From NCBI GenBank assembly GCA_965235115.1, contig OZ249436.1, positions 16,866,001 through 16,930,000 on the forward strand: DNA of 64,000 nt, read 5' to 3'. Every line of letters starts with the position of its first letter. The first letter of the stretch is position 1. The stretch comes from Laetmonice hystrix. Its lineage: Eukaryota. The translations under genes were made by a program, and so were the position numbers. Of the stretch, positions 620 through 64,000 are shown piece by piece. Below the pieces are notes generated by a model. It was not told where the DNA came from. It saw only the letters and a program-made list of their open reading frames with translations, and did no database searches.

Positions 620-3600
620 GTTTACTCCAAGTCAAACCGAGTTCCGGTCCAGGTCGGTTTCCGGTTCATCGTGCCCAATGACCTCCGGGACAGGGAATGG
701 CGGGAAAAATACGTGGAGGACAAGAGTGTCCTTGATGGCACCACCCCACCACCGACCACCACCACTACCACCACCACCACCACCACATCACCTACAACTA
801 CCACCACAACCACAACTACACCACCACCCACAACAACCACCACCACCACCACAACACCACCTATCACAACGACTTGGGAGCCCACCACCACCACCACCAC
901 CACCACCACCACCACCACAGCGCCCCCTACCGAGAAGTTGGAGCACAATATGAAGGAGGTTGTAGAGAATGAGGTGGAGAAGGTGGCCGACCATACGTAC
1001 ATGTGGCGGTTCGTCGACTGGTCACCCTGTAGTGTCACCTGTGGCGAGGGTAAGTCTGCACTCACTCATTTAATACCATTGACCAGCAAATACTTGAGAG
1101 TGGCACTTTGGTGAGATCTGAATTTGCAGTGTTCATTTAGTATTTGAGCGCTGTGGTTGTGTTCCAGGCGAACAGAGGGTGATGATGTCGTGTGTCCTCT
1201 CGGCGAACGGAGCCCCAGTGGCCGACACTGCGTGTAACCGGATCCCGCGTCCCGACACCCACGTCCAGCCCTGCGTAAAACCGGCCTGCCAGGCCCTCCA
1301 ACCCTACAGGTCAGTGTGAACCCGGCCTGCCAGACCCTCCAACCGTACAGGTCAGTGTGACCCCGGCCTGCCAGGCCCTCCAACCCTACAGGTCAGTGTG
1401 AGTCCGGCCTGCCGGGCCCTCCAACCCTACAAGTCAGTGTGAGCCCGGCCTGCCAGACCCTCCAACCCTACAGGTCAGTGTGAGCCCAGCCTGCCAGGCC
1501 CTCCAACCCTACAGATCAGTGTGAGCCCGGCCTGCCAGGCCCTCCAACCCTACAGGTCAGTGTGAGCCCGGCCTCGCCTGCCAGACCCTCCAACCCTACA
1601 GGTCAGTGTGAGCCCGGCCTGCCAGGCCCTCCAACCCTACAGGTCAGTGTGAGCCCGGTCTGCCAGGCCCTCCAATCCTACAGGTCAGTGTGATCCCGAC
1701 CTGCCAGGCCCTCCAGGTCAGTGTGAGCCCAACTTCGCCTGCCAGGCCCTCCAACCCTACAGGTCAGTGTGAGCCCGACTTCGCCGGCCAGGCCCTCCAA
1801 CCCTACAGGTCAGTGTAAGCCCGACTTCGCCTGCCAGGCCCTTCAACCCTACAGGTCAGTGTGAGCCCGACCTGCCAGGCCCTCCAACCCTACAGGTCAG
1901 TGTGAGCCCGGCCTGCCAGGCCCTCCAACCCTACAGGTCAGTGTGAGCCCGGCCTCGCCTGCCAGACCCTCCAACCCTACAGGTCAGTGTGAGCCCTGCC
2001 TGCCAGGCCCTCCAACCCTACAGATCAGTGTGAGCCCGGCCTGCCAGGCCCTCCAACCCTACAGGTCAGTGTGAGCCCGGCCTGCCAGGCCCTCCAACCC
2101 TACAGGTCAGTGTGAGCCCGGCATGCCAGGCCCTCCAGGTCACTGTGAGCCCGGTCTGCCAGGCCCTCCAACCAGCCCGGCCTACCAGGCCCTCCAGATC
2201 ATTGTGAGCCCGGCCTGCCAGGCCCTACACATCAGCCTTTAGGGATTTATATGAGAAAAAAATCCAACTTTTATTACTAGAATACCCTCTGAACGCTAAT
2301 CGTCAAGACCCCTTCATATTTAAACGTATTGTATACACCCAGACAAATTTAATATAAATTCAAGCTAATAGTATTCGCAATAGTGGACACGCCAAAAGGA
2401 GTTTATACCGCCTTTATTGTATGTCCCTACCGACTGAGGAGGGGCAGGTAGGCTGTGCCCACCGAACCCAACCCACATACAAAACGATCACTGTACAAAG
2501 GTTCACTGGTATATCAACACTCTCCCCGCTCGCACTCACGGAGACGTACCCGCTGAGCCCAACAGGGGGCGCCGTTGTAGACACAACCCTACTTGTACAC
2601 TGAGAGAGATAAACGGTGCTATAACTATGCTGGACGACTTCCGTACAGTACTCTCGGGTCGGGGGTGGGGGGGGGGGGGGTGCTGGCTGCTGTCTGCCAT
2701 CTCCTCGCCTCCCCCTCCCCTCCTTCTCCCTGAGGCGGCAGATCATATCAACGACAGGACATACCTCCTTATACTGGCCGTACATAACACTGGCCCGACC
2801 ATGGCGAGGTCGGCTTACAAAATGTCAGTTAAAATGTTTATAACAGTCGGAAACAACACTTCTAATGTAAAAAGTTACCAAAGGCCGCTACGTCGGCACG
2901 GATTCAAAAGACATGACAAAATATGAATTTCTCCTATATAAAACTGACCCGCTCTGTGAATAACCTGACCTATGTATGACCTAATAACCTGACCTTGAAT
3001 GTATGACCTGTCACAGACATCTGACCCTTGGTGCCTACGCACCTGGTCAACAGTCCAAAGTGGAAAACGGAGTATTACCAAAAAGGTTGTTAGCCCCCCC
3101 CCCCTCCTCCGGTAAACTTACCTGGAAAAACGGTTACATTTACATGGATCACACTGAAGAAAATGCTGTGGTCCTCCTGTACACAGACCCCCCCCCCCCC
3201 CACCTCCAGTACCCGACATCCATCCTACAGCAGACGGCCAGACTGCCAAGTCTGTTGTATTTGACCACCACCAGACGTCGCCAGAGACTAATCTCCGGGT
3301 TACCACACTATCAACCTCTGCCTCCTACAGGGACATGGAGCATCGAAATATTAAAACCTTTCATTTTTTTTATTTCTTTTGGAGAAATAATGGTTAAAAC
3401 TTAAGGATCCTTGACCGTGATGTCTGGTTTATTGTGAAAGTTTACAAGGGGAATAATCAGGACAATACACCACCTCTACCGCCACCTGTTGGACCCAGAA
3501 TAAATCACTGTACTGCCTTCACAGTCGGACCTCCTTACTCAAGTTTTCTTGTTCCCCTCAAACTACTGTATCTTCTTTGAGTGAACCTCACTAACGGAAC

Positions 3601-6600
3601 AGAACAAGTAAATGTAAAGTTAAATATCATAATATCGTTTGCTTTTCACTACAACATAGGGAAAAATCGATAACATAGATTACAACATTTCGGCTGGCTT
3701 ATCAAGTTATTGGTGGTCATCTCATGAAGTTTGTCTCGATTAGTGCCAGAGAGATTCTGATAAAACTCAGACTACGCAAAATTACATCTGCAACTCATAC
3801 AACGTGTATGAAGTAAAAATTGAGCGAAAAACGGTAAGATGATAATAGCCTTCAGTTCATGGAATCTGGCTACAATATAAAGGGCAAAATTTGAAAACAT
3901 AGAGGCTGGCGAACGAACTTCATCTCCAAATGGACCAGGGAACCAGGCCAGTTATCCTACTGGGCCAGGGAACCAGGCCGGAATCTCCCTTTGGACCAGG
4001 GAACCAGGCCGGGATATTCCACTGGACCGGGGAATTAGGCCGGAATCTCCCGTTGGACCAGGGAACCAGGCCGGGATATCCAATTGTATCAGGGAACCCG
4101 GCCAGGATATCCCACTGGACCAGGGAACCAGGCCGGGATATCCAACTGGATCAGGGAACCAGGCCAGGATATCCCACTGGACCAGGGAACCAGGCCGGGA
4201 TATCTCACTGGACCGGGGAACTAGGCCGGAATCTCCCTTTGGACCAAAGAACCAGGCTGGGATATCCCACTGGACCAGAGAGCCAGGCCAGGATATCCCA
4301 CTGGACCAGGGAACCAGGCCGGGATATCCCACTGGACCAGAGAACCAGGCTGGGAGCTCCCTTTGGACCAGGCAGCCATGCTTCCATGGCTCCTATAGCA
4401 ATATGTTAACTGATTTGTTCTTCAAAGTCAGTCATTTCTATTTGAATAATTTTAATTAGTCACTGAGCTATATCCAACTGATACCATTACCAGAAACATT
4501 CACCCAGTATACCAGATATATCCACCCAGTGTACCAGACACATCCACCCAGTATAGGCACTATACTAGATACATTCACCCAGTATACCAGATACATCCAC
4601 TAAGTACACCAGAAACATCCACCCAGTATACTGGTGTTTCCACCCAGTACACCAGACACATCCACCCAGCATGCCAGACACATCCACCCAGTATACCCCA
4701 CATCCACCCAGTATACCAGACACATCCACCCAGTGTATCGGATACATCCACCAAGTATACCAGAAACATTCACTCAGTATACCAGACACATCCACCCAGT
4801 ATACCAGACACATCTACCCAGTATACCAGATACATCCCCCAGTATACCAGACACATCCACCCAGTATACAAGATCCCTCCAGCAATGACACACCTAGCGT
4901 GTAATGGTGTAAAGGGGACGATGATCAACATCAGTACAATATATCGCTATGTAACAAAATCTAACGCGGTAACATCAGCTCACAGCTCTACAACCCGTCT
5001 TGGACACGTGACAGCTCATGTTTACAACCCCCATCTCCATGGTAACCACCACTTTCTATGGTTACCAACCAAACGTTAACATCAAACCATGCTGACGTTC
5101 TCCCAGTCACCCTGTGCTGCTGTGTGCCTTCCAAAAATCAAGCAATGTCATGGGAACCATGGTAACCAGGTCACCTTGTTTACATGACCACGCCACGATT
5201 AAATCCATCCTGACGTCAAATCCCACGACATCATCTTTTCCTCTCCCTGCTTCCATCAACGTTTTCACTAACTAATCCACCCATACTCCCAATAGTTCCA
5301 TGGAGATATGGTTTTTTTAATATCCCTGATATCGTTTTCAAAGCCAAGTTTAAAAATGTAACTATGGGTTTCTCGTAACCTGTCGCCATGGTAACATAGC
5401 CTCAGGTCACCTTGACCACAAGGCTACGTTACTATTATATATATCCTTCCTCCAAGCTCACTTCCTACCAGATGAGTCCATTAACACCAGACTATTGTGT
5501 CACCCTGGTATCGGCATTTACCAGGAAATTATGTTTAAAATAAATAATGGACCAATCTGAGAGAACAGCCAACCTGTGACGAACGGATCTTGTCCCTCTC
5601 TAGCAGACTCTGAGAACGCAGTACTGTTCACTGCACGTCAGACACCATAGTTCTTGAGCTGAGTTATAGAATTTCAACCTCTGACCTGGAAATGACCTTC
5701 AAACATTGGACTGTGTCCTTGGAAGGATGTCACCACATCCCTCCGCCAATCACACTCGTCGGTCACAAACACTCATTGACCAGGAATGAACAAATTAGGG
5801 CCTCCTCCACAGAGAATGTATGCGACCTTCCTTCTAACCCTTGAGCTTTAACCCATGAACCCTATTATTTTAATTCCCCACGTCCAGTGACGTCATGCTG
5901 ATTACCTGTTTAGATTCAACTCTGACTTCTGACCCTTTTCAAAAGATCAGAGGTCGCGTTTTATCCAACCATTTTTCAATTCTAGTACCACGTTCCTGAA
6001 TATTGAAACAAGTGTATTCTAATTGTTGTTTCCTTCAATGTGGAGATACCAACTGTGGTGTTCTGAGAACGACTGAGCTGCCAGCAGACCAACCCAGAGT
6101 TGGACTGTTACTCAGGGCAGTCTGAGGTAATGTTCGGGTTGTGTTAAGTAGAACCAGGTCCCTTCAGCTGCACGGCTTTCTACCCGAAAGATTATTCTAT
6201 GGGAAATCATTGTCTATTGTGTGAAAACTGAACTCTGGGAGGAGGCACTTCAAGGTCCGATGACATCACGTGTGGCATCAGTGCTGACCTCTGGCGTGGG
6301 ACTGAGGAACCGGTCGCAGTCAGTGAGATTCTCCTTCAAAAACCATCCTAGTGGCGCCACCTTTCACCTGGGAAGGAACCACATGTACTTGTGCACCATG
6401 TACGAGCCGTCGCTGTCTGTGTTGTTGGCGAAGGACGTTGAGAGAAGTTCCCAGCCATGATTGTGGAGGTGGTGAACGACGGCCATCTTGGGACACGTAC
6501 TGCTGCTGATGTTAATTGTACGATACTGGCCGTCACTCGCCTGTAAATCCTTTATTGTTTTCTCTGGCAGTGGAAGTGTCAATAAAGCAGCCTTAGCACC

Positions 6601-9046
6601 AGACAAGACCAAGCCACCATTTTTAAGTTCCGTGTGAATTCCACGTGGGGGATCGGAGTAGAACCTATAGAAGTAGGCCGTCTCCTCGAAGTCAAGGATT
6701 TCGAGGTAATAACCGGTATGTTTGGACTCCTGGTTTTTGAGGGCGCGGACGGCAGCAATCATGGCCTGGATCTGGTAGAAGTCAGCCTCAGCCTCCAATA
6801 ACTCGTGCTCTTTGAACCCCTGGGGGGTACAGAGGCGCCCTGACCTCAGAAAGTTGAGCACATGGCGGAACATTTCACCGTCACGGTCAATGAAGTAGTT
6901 TCCCTGGGTGTCAAAAGACGTTGGTACAAACTGCCCATTGAACATGGCACTGAGCATCGAGTCCTGATACTTGCAGAGTGTTGACCGCGTTGTGTTGTAA
7001 ATCACCCCGCCAACATTGAGTGTCACCACCTCGTCCGCCATCCTCCTTCTGCCTCCTCCCAACTCACAAGATCAACTCTGAAAACAAAACACAGAGTGTT
7101 TTAGTTAGACAAAATAACATGTTGACAGTGTCTGAGTTAGACAAAATAACTTATAGACATGGCATCTGAGTCTGACAAAATAACACATTGACAGTGTCTG
7201 AGTTAGAGAAAATAACATGTTGACAGTGTCTGAGTTAGACAAAATACCTTATAGACATGGCGTCTGAGTCTGACAAAATAACACATTGACAGTGTCTGAG
7301 TTAGAGAAAATAACATGTTGACAGTGTCTGAGTTAGACAAAATACCTTATAGACATGGCGTCTGAGTCTGACAAAATAACACATTGACAGTGTCTGAGTT
7401 AGAGAAAATAACATGTTGACAGTGTCTGAGTTAGACAAAATACCTTATAGACATGGCGTCTGAGTCTGACAAAATAACACATTGACAGTGTCTGAGTTAG
7501 AGAAAATAACATGTTGACAGTGTCTGAGTTAGACAAAATACCTTATAGACATGGCGTCTGAGTCTGACAAAATAACACATTGACAGTATCTGAGTTAGAG
7601 AAAATAACACATTGACAGTATCTGAGTTAGAGAAAATAACACATTGACAGTGTCTGAGTTAGACAAAATAACCTATAAACAAGGCATCTGAGTCTGATGG
7701 GTTTTATGTGCCACATTTAGTTTAGCTTTGTCCACACAGGTGGGTTGCTGATGACTGGGGATCATGTTCAGCGACATGTGGCCGCCTCGGTACAGAATCC
7801 CGCCGTGTACATTGTATGCACCAGTACTATGGGCGAGACTACCCTGTGGACCCGGTATACTGTGACATCCGCCAGATCCCACTCTACCGTCGTCCATGTC
7901 AGCGGGAACCATGCCCTGCAACCTGGCGTACTGAGGCCTGGACTCGGGTGAGTGAACATTAATTCTAATCTAAATGTCCTTTAAATCTGTCGGCTGGTGG
8001 CCACTCACCTGGAGATCTGTGTGTGATTCTATGACATTATTTATTGGACAGTGTACAATAAGTGTGTTTCAGGCACAAAAACTCATGATTCTACGGTATT
8101 ATTGATTGGTCAGTGTACAGTAATGTCTGATTCTATGACATTTTTTATTGAACAGTGTACAGTAACGTGTGGTTCAGGCACCCAAACTCGACGAGTTTAC
8201 TGTGATAAGCCATCAGATGGAAACACCTACAACTGCACTGAGAGAAAACCTTACAGTCGCCGCATCTGTAAACATCGATACTGCCGGGGTAAGCAGAGCC
8301 CTGCCTTGTTTCTGATACTGCCAGGGTAAGCGGAGCCCTGCCCTGTTTCTGATACTGCCGGGGAAAGCGGAGCCCTGCCCTGTTCCTGATACTGCCAGGG
8401 TAAGCGGATCCCTGCCCTGTTTCTGATACTGCCAGGGAAAGCGGAGCCCTGCCTTGTTTCTGATACTGCCGGGGTACGCGGAGCCCTGCCCTGTTTCTGT
8501 TTAAGGAGACAGTTAATTTTTTCCAGGCATATGCATACATTTCAAAACATTTGAGGAAACTTTATGAATAATTTCTTCAATCTTTGTTTCATTTCAGTAA
8601 GGAAAACAACAGAAGCAAAAACAACCGAGCCAACAACAACTACAACCACAGAACCTCCCACAACAGCATCCACAACAACAATTTCACCTCCAACGACTAC
8701 TACAACTACTACCACAACTACAACTACACAGCCCACCACAACTACACAGCTAACAACAACTACTCAGCCAACAACCACTACACAGGCAACATCAACTACT
8801 CCGCCAACAACCACTACACAGTCAACATCAACTAGAAGTCTGACAACACCAACTCTGTTCAGCAGCACCACGATGCCTGCACCAGACGGCAGTGAATCAA
8901 ACCCGGCCCCACCTATAGTTATCGGGGCCAGAACCCGTGCCTGCAACACAGACAAATCCTTCTTCTGCAAAATGGCTAGTCCCAAAAACTGCCAGCTGCC
9001 CCTTTACCGTAAATTCTGCTGTGCCTCTTGTGTTCCTTTATTATAA
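620..9046 (+). CDS. 3' part of an ADAMTS/ADAMTS-like extracellular protein (spacer end, Thr-rich linker, TSP1 repeats, second Thr-rich linker, C-terminal PLAC domain); 5' exons lie outside the window
   Basis: Exons 620-1049, 1168-1309, 7740-7947, 8156-8288, 8598-9046 have AG/GT boundaries and matching phases. TSP1 motifs WSPCSVTCGEG, WGSCSATCG, WTRCTVTCGSG; PLAC-like CNTDKSFFCK...CQLPLYRKFCCASC; AATAAA near 10100. Confidence 0.85.
1281..2230 (+). repeat. 41-bp minisatellite (~23 copies) whose unit spans the ADAMTS exon end and 5' splice site
   Basis: Unit CCGGCCTGCCAGGCCCTCCAACCCTACAG|GTCAGTGTGAGC; the first copy contains the true donor at 1309/1310. Confidence 0.95.
3930..4372 (+). repeat. 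~31-bp minisatellite
   Basis: Unit GGACCAGGGAACCAGGCCGGGATATCCCACT and variants. Confidence 0.9.
4488..4870 (+). repeat. ~22-bp minisatellite
   Basis: Unit CCAGACACATCCACCCAGTATA. Confidence 0.9.
6364..7041 (-). CDS. BTB/POZ (T1-type) domain KCTD protein, KCTD6/21-like, single coding exon, nested in an ADAMTS intron
   Basis: MADEVVTLNVGGVIYNTTRSTL..DSMLSAMF..GNYFIDRDGEMFRHVLNFLR..EADFYQI is a canonical KCTD BTB domain; 225 aa intact ORF; acceptor TTTTCAG just upstream (exon edge about 7077). Confidence 0.92.
   Translation of the reverse strand: MADEVVTLNVGGVIYNTTRSTLCKYQDSMLSAMFNGQFVPTSFDTQGNYFIDRDGEMFRHVLNFLRSGRLCTPQGFKEHELLEAEADFYQIQAMIAAVRALKNQESKHTGYYLEILDFEETAYFYRFYSDPPRGIHTELKNGGLVLSGAKAALLTLPLPEKTIKDLQASDGQYRTINISSSTCPKMAVVHHLHNHGWELLSTSFANNTDSDGSYMVHKYMWFLPR
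7102..7696. repeat. Higher-order minisatellite: 98-bp period made of three related 32/34/32-bp monomers
   Basis: GAGTTAGAGAAAATAACATGTTGACAGTGTCT + GAGTTAGACAAAATACCTTATAGACATGGCGTCT + GAGTCTGACAAAATAACACATTGACAGTGTCT; identical positions recur at 7201 and 7299. Confidence 0.92.
8277..8499 (+). repeat. 37-bp tandem repeat (6 copies) spanning an ADAMTS exon end and donor
   Basis: Unit GATACTGCCGGG|GTAAGCAGAGCCCTGCCTTGTTTCT starting at 8277, 8314, 8351, 8388, 8425, 8462. Confidence 0.95.
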
Positions 9047-9235
9047 CCTTGTATTAGAAACAGGAGAACCAGCAGACAGGTAACAGAGCAGCATTAAATA
9101 CAACTCTCAGAGTTCAGTAAATTATTTATCATTTGACCAGTCCGATATATCACAACTTCCAACAGCTGCCTATTGACGTTGTACCTCCAGCTTAGGAGAA
9201 AACAAAGTGATGTGACCACTTTCTATTTACCTTTG

Positions 9236-9830
9236 TCACAGTCTGAGAGATGTGACCACACTTTGGGTATCACCTCTCACAATCTAAGATCTATGTGACC
9301 ACACTTTGGGTATCACCTCTCACAATCTGAGATGTGACCACACTTTGGGTATCACCTCTCACAGTCTGAGAGATGTGACCAGACCTTGGGTATCACCTCT
9401 CACAGTCTGAGAGATGTGACCACACTTTTGGTATCATCTCTCACAATCTGAGAGATGTGACCACACTTTGGGTATCACCTCTCACAGTCTGAGAGATGTG
9501 ACCACACTTTTGGTATCACCTCTCGCAATCTGAGAGTTGTGACCACACTTTGGGTATCACCTCTCAGTCTGAAAGATGTGACCAGACCTTTGGTATCACC
9601 TCTCACAGTCTGAGAGATGTGACCACACTTTGGGTATCACTGCTTAGTCTGAGAGTGAGAGATGTGACCACACTTTGGGTATCACCTCTCACAGTCGGAG
9701 AGATGTGACCACACTTTGGGTATCACCTGTCACAATCTGAGATGTGACCACACTTTGGGTATCACCTCTCACAAACTGAGAGATGTGACCAGACCTTGAG
9801 TATCGCCTCTCACTGTCTGAGAGATGCGAC
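9236..9830 (+). repeat. ~39-41-bp minisatellite in the probable ADAMTS 3' UTR
   Basis: Unit GAGATGTGACCACACTTTGGGTATCACCTCTCACAGTCTGA; lies between the stop (9046) and AATAAA (~10100). Confidence 0.9.
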
Positions 9831-57586: not shown

Positions 57587-58092
57587 GGCTAAATAAAAAA
57601 AGTTACTTGTTTAGCGTCCCCCTCGTCAATTTTTTCCAGGTCGGGGGGGGGGGTATTTTTATTTTTTATTCCATGAATGGAGTGGCGGCGTGGCTGTAGG
57701 AAGAAGACACCCATGGTAGGCCCCCTATTCATGGTCAGACGGCAAGTTAGGAAGGTATAGATGACTATGAAAACGTCCAAGCTAGAATTTGAAGAAGAAA
57801 ACATGAAAATTCTATTTAAGTCGTTGTTCAAGTCAAAGTTAAAGTTGTGCACATGTTCCACACAGACCACAGTTCAAAACATGAGGCTTGTTTTAAATTT
57901 CACAGGTCGTTAATGGGTTTATAAAGCGCATTATACACTGTTCTTAGGCGGGAAGACTTTGTTTTGACAGTTTTTACACTTTAGGCTATTTTGTTTTGTT
58001 TTTTTTATAAAAAAAAATTTAAAAAAATCCAGGTCGGGGGCATTTCACAGGTCGGGCGGGGACGCTAAACAAGTAACTTTTTTTATTTGGCC
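57587..58092. mobile_element. PIF/Harbinger-like MITE with ~35-bp TIRs
   Basis: TTA|GGCTAAATAAAAAAAGTTACTTGTTTAGCGTCCCC...GGGGACGCTAAACAAGTAACTTTTTTTATTTGGCC|TTA. Confidence 0.85.
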
Positions 58093-59565: not shown

Positions 59566-59727
59566 ATGGGATTCATTCACCTACAAATCAGTCTATCGTT
59601 GCATTCAGCTGTTAAATGTCTACCGAACTTTTAAATTCACCTTACGAGTTTTTGTAGTTTTGTTAACTGCAATGTCACCATGACACTCCTCAAGATTTTG
59701 ACGTGGTTACAACAAACACGTTAAGAA

Positions 59728-59884
59728 TAAAGCCAGGAATCCATGTGTCCGTAGTGCGTATTGCGTAATCAAAGCAATGAAAACATGCATTACGGACTCA
59801 TGGAATCACTTGTTTTCATTGAATTTGATGAATACCCATTACGCACTACGCCCACACTACGTATACATGGATTCCTGGCTTTAG
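59728..59884. mobile_element. Small palindromic MITE
   Basis: TAAAGCCAGGAATCCATGTGTCCGTAGTG...CACTACGTATACATGGATTCCTGGCTTTA. Confidence 0.75.
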
Positions 59885-61681
59885 CCACGATTTTTTTATC
59901 GTAATTTCTAGTCAACGATATTTGCATAATGAAAGGTAACGTGTGAAATGGGGTTTTCTATTTATACCTCCAACGGAGACTACCCACTTCTTTCTCTTCT
60001 TCAATTACTTAATGTGTAAATGCACCACCCTTCCTTTCTTTCCTTAAATACATGTGCCTGATTACAGCTCATTATTAGCGTTCTGGCCAAATAATTTGCG
60101 ACCGTTGCCCAGAGGTCACTAAGAGGCGGCCTTGACCCTCATCTCGGTCCTTAATTATAAACAGTATATACAGTCTAAATATAGAAACTCCAGTAACCTT
60201 GGAAACCTGAGAGGAGGTATCTAAACGCACTTCTGCTGGACAGCACCTGAAAACACGTCTGTGGACACAAAAATACATGATCTAATCTCAGTCTACCTCG
60301 CCGAACGTCTTCAACACGTCACCAACTGCTACAACAGATGGAGAAAAGATTTTGAACTCGGACTCGCAGACTTACTGCTCCAAAAACGTGGGGTTTGTAT
60401 CATGTCAATCACTCCATCCCTTTCCAGCGCAGAGCTCACAACCTTTGTGTGTATTATACACGAGTAACGGATACATCTGTGTAATAATGCTGTAATCTTG
60501 ACATTGTTTTGGAGAAGGACCAGTTAAAACATCGCTAACAGGTCGCAAGAGGACCTTCACATCGGAGACCTAGAGCCAGTGAAACATAGGAATGTTCTCA
60601 AAAGCGTACACTATAAACCATATTATATATTTTTATAGATATTTTATAGATATAGCTGTTCCTTGAGAAGAAATTCACTGAGAGGTTCGACCGTTTACAG
60701 TCCGAGGGACATGTTAGTGCTTAGTTGACTTTGGTAGTTCACTGTGCCCAATTGATGCGCCCACCCTTCGCCTCCATGCTAGAGCTCTGTGACATCAGGA
60801 ACGAACTACAGGCGCACGTGACATGACATACCGCAGTGAAGACCAAAGATGAGGTAATCTACGTGCGTACTGGAGCCTATAACGTAGTTGCAAGGATACG
60901 TTTTATGTTTGCCGATGTCATCAAGCATTAGGAGTATTGACAAAGCCCCCTGACCCCCAGCGACCCCTCATGACTGATTGGTTAGCTGGGCACTGAGAGC
61001 AAGGCTCGTTCTGTCTAAACTGTTCGTCTGGTGACGATGACGTCACAATGGCGTCCTGTTTCTTGTTTGACGTGGCAGACAATGGGAGTCACTATAGTAT
61101 TAGGCGTGTTCGCCGTGAGAGTGTTAGCCAACCCACCACTACCACCCGCCATCCAATCACAGACATCACGCCCTCGTTGGAGTTTGCACCTTGGTTCCCA
61201 CCCACAATATTCGGTTTCTCCGGAAGTTCTACATGAAGACTTCCGGTCAGGCGTTATTGGGTAAATGTCCTGACGTGACGCTGCCACGACGTAACGTCAC
61301 GCGCCCTGCCGTGGGTAGGCAGCGTCTTTCATCACAGGTCGCTGTCTGTGTCTGTTGTAAACCGGACATGTTACACGTGTCCGACCATACCTTGAACAGC
61401 TCACTCAGGGAGAGACAGTGGGCCCTTCTAATCTCCTGTACAATTTGAGGGCCCTGCTGCTCAATATACTTGCGAGATTTACATGAACCGACCAGTTTTT
61501 ATATACTCCTTGTATTGTCAGAAAGTGATACATAGGCCCTATCCTAAACATATGGTCATAACAATGTGAGCCTCACCCAAAAAATGATATCATCATTAAA
61601 CATCACATGAAATACTGGAATAAAAAAATACAATGTGATCGTGCAAACCTACACTGTCCCTCAGTGCCCTCCCAGTGAGTT

Positions 61682-63360
61682 CTAATCCTCATCTTCCCAG
61701 GGTGCAACAACATTTCCCGGTTTCCCCCCATTTTCCTCATCTTCCCAGGGTGCAACAACATTTCCTGGTTTACCCCCAATTTCCTCATCTTCCCAGGGTG
61801 CAACAACATTTCCTGGTTTACCCCCAATTTCCTCATCTTCCCAGGGTGCAACAACATTTCCTGGTTTACCCCCATTTTCCTCATCTTCCCAGGGAGCGAC
61901 TACGTTAGATACCTTGTGGTTCGCCCCACCCTCCCCCTCCCCGTCCTCCTCCTCGTCGTCGTCGTCCTCCTCCTCGTCCTCCTCCTCCCATGGTGCCACC
62001 ACGTTATTGCCAGTGGTGCTGGGCACGGCGATGTTAAGGCTAAGGTTTTGGTCGTGCTTGGTGACCCGTTGGGCGAGCGCCTGGTGTTGGTGGGCGGGTA
62101 CCTCCAGCGACCTCCTCCCGGGGCTCCCGTGACGCATCAGGTCCTCCAGCTTGTTGTGGAGCGTCTTCATCGACAACCTACAATATCACGTGGTGCAGTC
62201 TCAGCTAATCACCTGCTAGACGGGTTCATGTTTATAATATACCATCATTCACAGTTATGTGTGTGCAAGATGTCGACTGAAAGATTATGGAAGGAGAGAA
62301 GACTTAGCCTTAAGATTATTCATGTCCAATTGTTTATGGCCAAAGCCAAAGCGAAGAGCAATTCATTGCCAACACTTTCCAATGATTTAATGCAATAAAA
62401 AAAAAATTAAAAATAGAGCCAGTTTGAGGGTCCGATGATATGTATGAAGATCACGTGATACGTTAGATGATATCTCACTCACCCCTTCTTGTTTTCACCC
62501 TTCACATCGCCAGTACTCCTGCAACGTGACAGTTCAATGGATCAGTTCCCACGGGTTGAGGTTGTAGGTTGATTAACAGGGTTAATTAACATCCCAGCCC
62601 TGACCTACTACAGGCTTAATGAGGGTTGACCTGTTAGAGCCTAGAGCAGTCCCGTCTCACCTCCATTAATAACACCTCCTATACCCAAATCATGATATGT
62701 TTAAACCTTCTATCGTCATCAATATAGGAGTATAAGACTGTCGGACAGGAGCACACCAAGGATTAACCTCGGGTTTAGGTCAAAGTGGAGGTTAACCCTT
62801 GCTGTCCTCACCCACCCACAGCCACACTCACCCAAAGGGCGACGACTTGTTCGACTTGCCGTTGATATCTAGCTCATGGAGGTTTCCGGTGCTGAAGGAA
62901 TGCTGGGATAGCCCGGCTTCCGTCGTCATCTTGGTTGCGACGTTCATGTCGTCCGAGGCACTACCGCGTCGTTTGGGCTTCGGGCTCGGGTTGGGAGACT
63001 TCTTCTTGGTTCCTCCAAAATTAAAAAATCTTCAAACGGAAAAACAAAGTCGTAATGTTTAAATATATCATACTGGAATGGAAGGTCTTTACCTACGGTT
63101 ATTCTGATAAATTAAAGCTATATTTAGTATCTGTAACCTTTCTTAAATCTTCGACTACAGAGAGTCTGACGTGATTTGACTGACAGTGAAGAGGAGTTTA
63201 AAAAAAGAAAGAAAGAGAGGCACAGACTTACTTTTTCTTCGGGCATGGGTTGACAGCATTAGCGAGGAGATACTTAAAGTGGTCGGACCGAATGAAGCGG
63301 TTATAACTGTCTTTCTTCATCAGCGTGTAAATATGGTCCTGGGCCTTGTCCATGGTAAAC
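61682..63360 (-). CDS. 3' part of an R7-family regulator of G-protein signalling (RGS9/11-like); 5' exons lie outside the window
   Basis: Exons 63360-63232 (RFTMDKAQDHIYTLMKKDSYNRFIRSDHFKYLLANAVNP = end of the RGS domain, RGS9-like MKKDSY), 63029-62832, 62518-62483, 62177-61682; all junctions are phase 2 GT-AG. Confidence 0.88.
61685..61905 (-). repeat. Coding 48-bp repeat encoding GNVVAPWEDEE(I/N)GGKP
   Basis: Five tandem copies plus a sixth NVVAPWE motif at about 61986-62006. Confidence 0.9.
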
Positions 63361-64000
63361 CTGGGCCAGAGACACACGTAATTATATCAGGGCCTTGTCC
63401 ATGGTAAACCTGGGCCAGAGACACACGTAATTATATCTGGGCCTTGTCCATGGTAAACCTGGGCCAGAGACACACGTAATTATATCTGGGCCTTGTCCAT
63501 GGTAAACCTGGGCCAGAGACACACGTAATTATATCAGGGCCTTGTCCATGGTAAACCTGGGCCAGAGACACACGTAATTATATCAGGGCCTTGTCCATGG
63601 TAAACCTGGGCCAGAGACACACGTAATTATATCAGGGCCTTGTCCATGGTAAACCTGGGCCAGAGACACACGTAATTATATCTGGGCCTTGTCCATGGTA
63701 AACCTGGGCCAGAGACACACGTAATTATATCAGGGCCTTGTTAATGGTAAACCTGGGCCAGAGACGCACGTAATTATATCAGGGCCTTGTCCATGGTAAA
63801 CCTGGGCCAGAGACACACGTAATTATATCAGGGCCTTGTCCATGGTAAACCTGGGCCAGAGACACACGTCATTATATCAGGGCCTTGTCCATGGTAAACC
63901 TGGGCCAGAGACACACGTCATTATATCAGGGCCTTGTTAATGGTAAACCTGGGCCAGAGACACACGTAATTATATCAGGGCCTTGTCCATGGTAAACCTG
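63341..64000 (-). repeat. 49-bp minisatellite (at least 13 copies, runs off the window) spanning an RGS exon acceptor
   Basis: Minus-strand unit TGATATAATTACGTGTGTCTCTGGCCCAG|GTTTACCATGGACAAGGCCC; the last copy holds the real acceptor (63361/63360). Confidence 0.95.

Follow-up and report, generated by a model that had tools for sequence, protein, structure and literature searches.

Six NVVAPWE motifs at the C-terminus of a predicted R7-family RGS protein of Laetmonice hystrix: a candidate built-in G-alpha adapter

The stretch of Laetmonice hystrix DNA considered here, referred to below as the window, comprises 64,000 nucleotides (C1:16866001-16930000; contig OZ249436.1 of assembly GCA_965235115.1), and an R7-family RGS gene on its minus strand runs off its right end. 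We found that the terminal coding exon of this gene closes with six copies of the heptapeptide NVVAPWE, and that this peptide is conserved in homologous tails and has been under selection. We consider it probable that the tail is a PDE-gamma-like (PGL) type of G-alpha adapter that is built into the RGS protein itself and has been multiplied here, a reading in which the partner and the effect of copy number are what we infer.

The minus-strand frame at 61682-62185 is open over 167 codons and ends ...NVVAPWEDED followed by TAG (end sequence NNVVAPWEEEDEEEDDDDEEEDGEGEGGANHKVSNVVAPWEDEENGGKPGNVVAPWEDEEIGGKPGNVVAPWEDEEIGGKPGNVVAPWEDEENGGKPGNVVAPWEDED). The exon itself supplies one base that completes a split AAG (Lys) codon and then 164 codons, in which the conserved boxes KLEDLMR, SLEVP and NIAVP are followed by an acidic linker and the six motifs, with ~57 residues preceding the first of these. 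A back-translated NVVAPWE pattern matched six times, always on the minus strand (61985-62005, 61886-61906, 61838-61858, 61790-61810, 61742-61762, and 61694-61714), and not once in 100 dinucleotide shuffles of the window. The shorter VVAPWE pattern had seven matches in the whole 627-Mb genome, namely the six of the window and one elsewhere, against three for a reversed-pattern control. The six copies in the terminal exon and their position just before the stop are as the initial annotation had described them. Its placement of five copies within a 48-bp repeat has to be narrowed, however: four lie fully inside, whereas only the PWEDEE part of the fifth (motif 2, 61886-61906) falls in the array. 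Motif 1 is located upstream of the acidic linker. Four identical NVVAPWEDEE units, separated by N/I-GGKPG spacers, make up the coding content of the array (the motifs start at 61858, 61810, 61762, and 61714), and the codons of motifs 3-6, AAT GTT GTT GCA CCC TGG GAA, are identical as DNA in all four copies. The features of the exon are as follows.

61685..62177, minus strand: terminal coding exon of the R7 RGS gene (open frame, acceptor, homologous tail open reading frames, and the phase in a second organism described below)
61985..62005, minus strand: motif 1, AAC GTG GTG GCA CCA TGG GAG, after the NIAVPSTTGN box (pattern match)
61930..61988, minus strand: acidic linker EEEDEEEDDDDEEEDGEGEG, a triplet-repeat run of GAG/GAC type (period 3, 19.7 copies; Tandem Repeats Finder, translation)
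61886..61906, minus strand: motif 2, AAC GTA GTC GCT CCC TGG GAA, preceded by HKVS, parent of the array and match to the terminal motif of relatives
61686..61894, minus strand: 48-bp tandem array, 4.4 copies, 97% matches (Tandem Repeats Finder)
61682..61684, minus strand: stop codon TAG, 3 codons past the last motif (open frame)

The connection of this exon to the RGS gene rests on its splice sites (exon boundaries are written below with a slash). The donor at 63231 and the acceptor at 62178/62177 are in phase, the split codon is Lys, and the frame goes on as LSMKTLHNKLEDL; this acceptor is the only usable AG, because a TGA sits three codons upstream. The penultimate exon encodes the C-terminal part of the RGS domain, and beyond the window two further RGS exons, the end of a GGL domain, four DHEX matches, and a DEP exon follow on the same strand, all within about 29.5 kb, with the DEP-to-RGS exons extending about 27 kb past the window end. 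Matches to PF00615 above cut-off were obtained at C1:16931136-16931294 (40.5 bits) and 16929273-16929359 (28.3 bits), and the third RGS exon was found by eye. When compared with PDB sequences by phmmer, an RGS exon matched RGS9 (E 3.6e-19) and RGS7 (E 3.3e-13), and the DEP and DHEX exons matched RGS7 and RGS9 only. The GGL match is weak and the 5' GGL exon was not located; the 3' part can be aligned both to the second R7 gene of this genome, on C3, and to the second organism described below.

62178..63231, minus strand: last intron, 1054 nt, from donor AA/GTAAGT to acceptor TTGTAG/G (splice sites, phase)
63232..63360, minus strand: penultimate exon, C-terminal RGS-domain part FTMDKAQDHIYTLMKKDSYNRFIRSDHFKYLLANAVNPCPKK (Pfam RGS positions 87-115; best PDB match RGS9)
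63361..64000 (C1 ~16929361-16930500), minus strand: intron with a 49-bp minisatellite, running past the window end (repeat analysis)
C1:16929273-16931294, same strand: RGS exons (Pfam PF00615)
C1:16931771-16931884, same strand: 3' part of GGL, EQFYEHDPFLCQPQPSNPWITDD (Pfam 22.2 bits, below the 27.1 cut-off)
C1:16945666-16954954, same strand: DHEX, four exon matches, two above cut-off (Pfam)
C1:16957058-16957231, same strand: DEP, 44 bits (Pfam)

The same exon order and splice phases were observed on an unrelated 39.6-kb contig from another organism (L037). This contig carries, on one strand and in order, the GGL end SEQYSEHDPMVCPPQPSNPWISDD, RGS exons 1, 2, and 3, and then, ~1 kb on, a tail exon that ends ...ISIAVPNTTHNVVAPWEDEA-stop (NVVAPWEDEA-stop). 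Its splice sites read ..AAG AA/GTGAGT and ..CGCAG/A TCC, with the phase as in the window (AA/GT...AG/N). For another locus, L040, no RGS exon was present within its 2.9 kb upstream flank. Judged by its frame, its junction and this shared organization, the window exon is a real 3' coding exon of an R7-family RGS gene (DEP-DHEX-GGL-RGS). In two organisms, the motif sits in a disordered tail after the RGS domain of a component of the R7 RGS complex.

Homologous tails were collected in several searches. With the tail as query, a full HMMER scan across 1.84 billion representative proteins gave 10 matches at E<=0.001, four of them homologous tail open reading frames and six unrelated repeat proteins, and a profile search of a 5.8-billion-cluster collection gave 15 matches, all of them such tails. 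A DNA-pattern scan of metagenome contigs yielded eight loci, comprising five tail exons and three chance matches in unrelated frames; an alignment-based search of metagenome contigs matched 66 stretches, none of which was confirmed by tblastn. Word-index protein searches with the tail or with RGS exon 1 returned no proteins of greater length, from a collection that seems to be without annotated eukaryotic RGS proteins. The resulting set consists of 20 tails besides that of the window (15 from the protein scans and five from metagenome loci). The initial annotation had proposed counting motifs in lophotrochozoan orthologues, and the count made here shows the motif in 20 other tail exons at one to four copies each, distributed as follows.

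1 copy: 15 tails
2 copies: 2 tails (P0007 and P0018)
3 copies: 2 tails (P0001; P0020, running into a fourth partial unit)
4 copies: 1 tail (P0014)
6 copies: the window, the maximum among the 21 tails

A common layout, S-x-x-K-L-[ED]-x-L, [NS]-L-[ED]-V-P, [NA]-I-[AT]-V-P, and NVVAPWE[DE], is shared by these 20 tails and the window, except that P0020 is without the LEVP box and that the third box is a variant in P0007 (NISMP), P0019 (KITVS), and P0022 (NIEVP). The motif itself was tabulated from 30 instances in 16 tails (the window and the 15 from protein scans), which gave N 30, V 28, V 29, A 30, P 30, W 30, and E 30, followed by D in 22 or E in 5. The mean column identity of the tail alignments is only 24-38%. 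Most tabulated tails (12 of 16) stop within 7 residues of the last motif (2-7). Both P0001 and P0014 end ..[NG]KVSNVVAPWEDED-stop, and their counterpart in the window is motif 2, HKVSNVVAPWEDEE. Since these two close relatives stop directly after KVSNVVAPWEDED, motif 2 corresponds to the ancestral terminal motif, with four NGGKPG-NVVAPWEDEE units added behind it. At two loci (L038:836-1072 and L041:827-1021), the NIAVP box directly abuts the motif (..NLNIAVPNVVAPWEDEA-stop); the spacer between box and motif can thus be lost altogether, which brings to mind the ..DITVICPWE.. of PDE-gamma.

One alternative is that the repeats are absent from the mature protein, whether through splicing from an AAG/GTATCT donor at ~61912, through another 3' end, or because the frame over the repeat is open by accident. 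There is something to be said for this: the exon and its junction are predicted from DNA, the 48-bp array is open in every frame of either strand, and such accidents do occur, as a VCPWE array elsewhere in the genome is the antisense reading of another open reading frame. The contigs of sequencing runs X1-X3, which are of DNA type and derive from one sample in one study, cross the last intron without interruption and are broken where the repeats lie (61715 and 61993). However, the donor, which the initial annotation had singled out as a way in which the repeats might be lost, is without the consensus +4A and +5G, and the KVS codons that contain it are coding in P0001 and P0014, where the translated frames run on to NVVAPWEDED-stop. 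Moreover, the non-repetitive first 57 residues of the window exon are conserved in the coding frame only, the old motif copies differ synonymously only, and the array closes with ..WEDED-stop as in relatives. Loss of the repeats from the protein is therefore very improbable in our view. A separate small gene starting at the Met of the exon is also argued against, because this Met is not conserved and conservation extends 5' of it to the exon start.

Comparison of the motif codons gave direct information on selection. Five codons differ between motifs 1 and 2 and four between motif 2 and motifs 3-6, and all nine differences are synonymous, with none non-synonymous. By our own count, ~22% of single-base changes in the motif codons are synonymous, so that nine out of nine would be very unlikely without selection on the peptide. 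Going by these codons and by the alignments, NVVAPWE is a selected, conserved short linear motif, although the four youngest copies arose too recently for selection to be visible in them. One motif is the ancestral state, and the six copies are a lineage-specific expansion: the window lineage had three old copies, the last of which was recently amplified by 48-bp tandem duplication to give six.

Whether the extra copies do anything is a different matter. Quite possibly the motif is functional but its four extra copies stem from a neutral minisatellite expansion within a disordered tail, recent and perhaps still polymorphic, and add nothing to what the ancestral one to three motifs do. The four units do not differ in the motif and match at 97% overall, and are hence young; the locus is prone to slippage, with an intronic minisatellite in the same gene and the triplet run of the acidic linker; and in 15 of the 20 other tails the motif occurs once, from which it follows that function does not depend on multiplication, which could be neutral, a point that counts against the multiplied part of our reading. 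Yet extra copies arose independently in several lineages (four in P0014, three in P0001, three or more in P0020, and two each in P0007 and P0018), and the expansion in the window preserves both the frame and the terminal ..DED-stop. In these lineages, the copies have persisted long enough for the spacers to diverge while the motif stayed intact, which makes them at least tolerated and perhaps useful.

The proposed function derives from the likeness of the motif to known PGL elements. The PGL motifs of vertebrate PDE6-gamma, RGS9-2, and GPR158/179 tune the shut-off speed of neuronal and visual G-protein signals, and R7 RGS proteins form an obligate dimer with G-beta-5. The tail of vertebrate RGS9-2 ends ..VICPWESL. 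The original work on RGS9-2 is reportedly that of Martemyanov et al. 2003. In published work, bovine PDE-gamma reads ..DITVICPWEAF.. (quoted in bioRxiv 10.64898/2026.04.01.715611), the GPR179 repeat reads EVCPWEVTE (bioRxiv 10.1101/2024.07.23.604860), and a review (PMC9027133) attributes binding of G-alpha-o to the VCPWE motifs of GPR158. In GPR179, PGL sequences are repeated in tandem, and basal G-alpha-o signals change when they are mutated (PMC11437087); the long RGS9 tail has been postulated to do the job of PDE-gamma (PMC5795056). The likeness of the core to VICPWE of PDE-gamma and VCPWE of GPR158/179, first pointed out in the initial annotation, is borne out by these known G-alpha-binding sequences, with V-x-x-P-W-E as the shared pattern; VVAPWE and VICPWE have V, P, W, and E in common in addition to a conservative V/I exchange.

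Given that the protein family, the extreme C-terminal position and the core are the same, a cis-acting PGL-type adapter is the best reading, and an adapter function toward G-alpha is likely by this analogy. In such a scheme, the RGS domain would be followed by a disordered tail of ~60 residues with three small boxes and then by N-V-V-A-P-W-E-[D/E] near the C-terminus. The Trp of the motif would occupy the effector groove (switch II / alpha-3) of G-alpha-i/o in its GTP-bound form, as Trp70 of PDE-gamma does in the RGS9-G-alpha-t/i1-PDE-gamma complex (PDB 1FQJ), with the adjacent RGS domain contacting the switch regions at the same time, and the ~57-residue linker to the first motif would be long enough for such joint docking. 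The tail would thereby raise the affinity and selectivity of the GTPase-activating protein (GAP) for its substrate, as described for PDE-gamma with RGS9-1 and as postulated for the RGS9-2 tail. Extra copies might raise the local motif concentration, with avidity, rebinding, the capture of several G-alpha-GTP molecules, or competition with effectors as possible outcomes. As to potential partners, the genes of G-alpha-i/o type in this genome consist of many exons, and the one G-alpha gene with just two, both of them large coding exons, is G12/13-like. This minus-strand gene (C1:48233534-48234115 + 48265888-48266427; L035:1034-1618, L036:1388-1927) has the C-terminus ..NLVSIMLQ, and from its N-terminal region we take it to belong to the G12/13 class.

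It is rather unlikely that NVVAPWE[DE] instead serves another partner, as a TRAF6-type PxExx[acidic/aromatic] motif, a kinesin-light-chain tryptophan-acidic motif, or a C-terminal VxPx signal for ciliary or rhabdomeric targeting. VAPW fits VxPx, and a Trp with an acidic flank lies 2-7 residues from the C-terminus in 12 of the 16 tails; PWEDEE fits PxExx[E], and the EVCPWEVTE of GPR179 is listed as a TRAF6-motif match (bioRxiv 10.1101/2024.07.23.604860). The +5 position of the TRAF6 motif is not satisfied, however, in at least 4 of the 16 tails (P0016, P0018, and P0021 end earlier, and P0015 has Ile), and the invariant N and A and the near-invariant V-V are left unexplained by all three classes. 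G-alpha is also favoured by the protein context, an RGS being a protein that acts on it, and by the PGL elements known from RGS partners.

Several points weigh against the adapter reading. The likeness to PDE-gamma amounts to four identical residues out of six (V, P, W, and E), and the Cys of the PGL core is replaced by Ala in 30 of 30 instances. A PDE6_gamma Pfam match was found for 0 of 16 tails at E<=10, the other Pfam matches being sub-threshold noise, and neither PDE-gamma nor GPR158 was reached at E<=10 in PDB sequences with the tail, one repeat unit, or a 14-tail profile as query. The C-terminal half of PDE-gamma is also missing from the invertebrate tails. On the grounds that no profile matches, that Cys is always Ala and that the PDE6-inhibitory half is absent, we conclude from these comparisons that the window tail is not a member of the PDE-gamma family. 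Multivalency of this motif class, moreover, has a precedent in GPR179 (PMC11437087). The multivalent architecture that the initial annotation did not know to be described is thus new in part: no invertebrate version in cis is in print among the papers searched, but tandem PGL repeats were known.

The subfamily is a further point of this kind. Two RGS exons that were tested favour RGS9 over RGS7 (71.7 vs 52.7 bits, and 37.4 vs 32.4 for the penultimate exon), but the DEP and DHEX exons favour RGS7 over RGS9 (57.5 vs 38.8 and 26.7 vs 25.2), and the RGS exon of L037 is a near tie (66.9 vs 64.3). The second R7 RGS gene of the genome (C3:9044926-9062110, plus strand, DEP/DHEX/GGL/RGS; L017-L019) has an RGS exon that favours RGS6/7 (49.5 and 47.0 vs 39.2 for RGS9), and no [AC]PWE-containing frame was found within 38 kb downstream of it. 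The window gene is probably the RGS9/11-type paralogue. Of the initial label 'RGS9-like', the R7 family stands on the DEP, DHEX, and RGS exons together with the weaker GGL match, whereas these scores make the RGS9 type a tentative assignment, plausible but not settled.

A pattern coding for VCPWE matched 115 times genome-wide, vs 107 times for the control, and formed four clusters; the scan led to no GPR158-like receptor. Three 12-unit arrays at C1:21.097-21.107 Mb read GSDDWVCPWEVQME.

C1:21097196-21097699, 21101961-21102464, and 21106991-21107491 (L023:7196-7699, L024:1961-2464, and L024:6991-7491), plus strand: VCPWE arrays (pattern match)

Each of three 5-kb tandem units there holds a 42/45-bp array, GSDDW[VA]CPWEVQ[MV]E x10-12, with the same VCPWEV as the GPR179 repeat. 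We rejected these arrays as PGL elements: they run antisense to a 457-codon minus-strand open reading frame with non-repetitive flanks (SICTSHGQ[AT]QSSLP), and the VCPWE reading is most likely an antisense accident. Also rejected were an array on C7, with a stop in every unit, and two on C6, with periods of 61 and 94 bp. Elsewhere on the same contig (C1:21060709-21074294; L030:709-2850, L030:5946-8129, and L031:2090-4294), three tandem uninterrupted open reading frames of 714-735 codons encode a protein kinase domain and PLK4 polo-box 1 and 2, and seem to represent a PLK4-like gene without introns that was triplicated in units of ~5.2 kb.

Three further features of the RGS locus were observed. 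Every 49-bp unit of the intronic minisatellite duplicates the 3' splice site together with ~24 nt from the start of the penultimate exon (..TCTGGCCCAG/GTTTACCATGGACAAGGCCC..), so that the real site is accompanied by 14 exact decoys, all of which reach a stop after ..FTMDKA[QL]I. On the 3' side of the gene, the only canonical AATAAA/ATTAAA within 3.6 kb of the stop (minus strand, window 61682 down to 58087) is at 58087, so either the 3' untranslated region is long or the polyadenylation signal is non-canonical. Downstream of the gene, window 59668-60001 is a very high-copy repeat, with a word depth of ~1,700-9,400 vs ~40-65 in its flanks (three DNA runs) and with many contig breaks and loose ends in these runs.

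As to what is new, the motif class and its tandem repetition (GPR179) were known already, and the addition is a near-invariant invertebrate version on the RGS protein itself, in one to six copies. VVAPWE was not found in the ~8.4 million open-access papers searched, and searches of the open-access literature for PDE-gamma-like motifs turned up only the GPR179 paper. The resemblance of the motif suggests an old built-in substrate adapter: with a near-invariant seven-residue relative at the C-terminus of R7 RGS proteins of invertebrates, the affinity adapter in cis would prove old and widespread, and the tails would offer a natural series of one to six copies for probing valency against GAP kinetics. 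A further step, which we think unlikely to hold, would be that NVVAPWE is an ancestral bilaterian PGL docking module for G-alpha-GTP, born in the tail of an RGS9-type GAP, from which the vertebrate RGS9-2 end, the GPR158/179 repeats, and the PDE-gamma core descend by exon duplication or capture. If true, PDE-gamma would not be a purely de novo vertebrate gene, and the copy number of one to six would be an evolvable dial on GAP avidity. The NI[AT]VP..NVVAPWE tail could, as a hypothesis only that rests on six residues, be a candidate source of the ..DITVICPWE.. core. The core through which PDE-gamma binds G-alpha would thereby gain a concrete candidate ancestor; Lagman et al. (PMC4906994) searched invertebrate genomes for PDE6-gamma without finding it and proposed a de novo origin.

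Among the closest known systems is the tail of RGS9-2: both proteins are R7-family members in which the RGS domain is followed by an extension. One invertebrate tail, P0021, ends ..NVVAPWESL where RGS9-2 ends ..VICPWESL. Unlike RGS9-2, the window-type core has Ala for Cys and an invariant Asn before the core, the invertebrate tails hold one to six copies of the motif rather than one, and the rest of the tail is without detectable similarity; orthology to RGS9 rather than RGS7 is tentative. With PDE6 gamma (PDE6G/PDE6H, transducin-binding segment around Trp70), the tails share V-V-A-P-W-E for V-I-C-P-W-E, and the D-I-T-V before the core resembles the invertebrate N-I-[AT]-V-P box located 0-25 residues upstream of the motif; PDE6 gamma, in contrast, is a separate 87-residue protein, and its polycationic region and PDE6-inhibitory C-terminal end are absent from the invertebrate tails. 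Among invertebrate R7 RGS proteins, C. elegans has two paralogues per genome (EGL-10 and EAT-16), as here on C1 and C3, and no statement on a PWE tail motif in EGL-10/EAT-16 was found in the literature. GPR158 and GPR179, finally, likewise carry a short V-C-P-W-E in acidic surroundings, placed in a cytoplasmic tail that is disordered and belongs to a member of the R7 RGS signalling complex; the motif is in tandem in GPR179 and is reported to bind or affect G-alpha-o. Their core has Cys where that of the window has Ala, and they are orphan class C receptors that anchor RGS7, so that their motif lies in trans to the GAP domain, whereas that of the window lies in cis.

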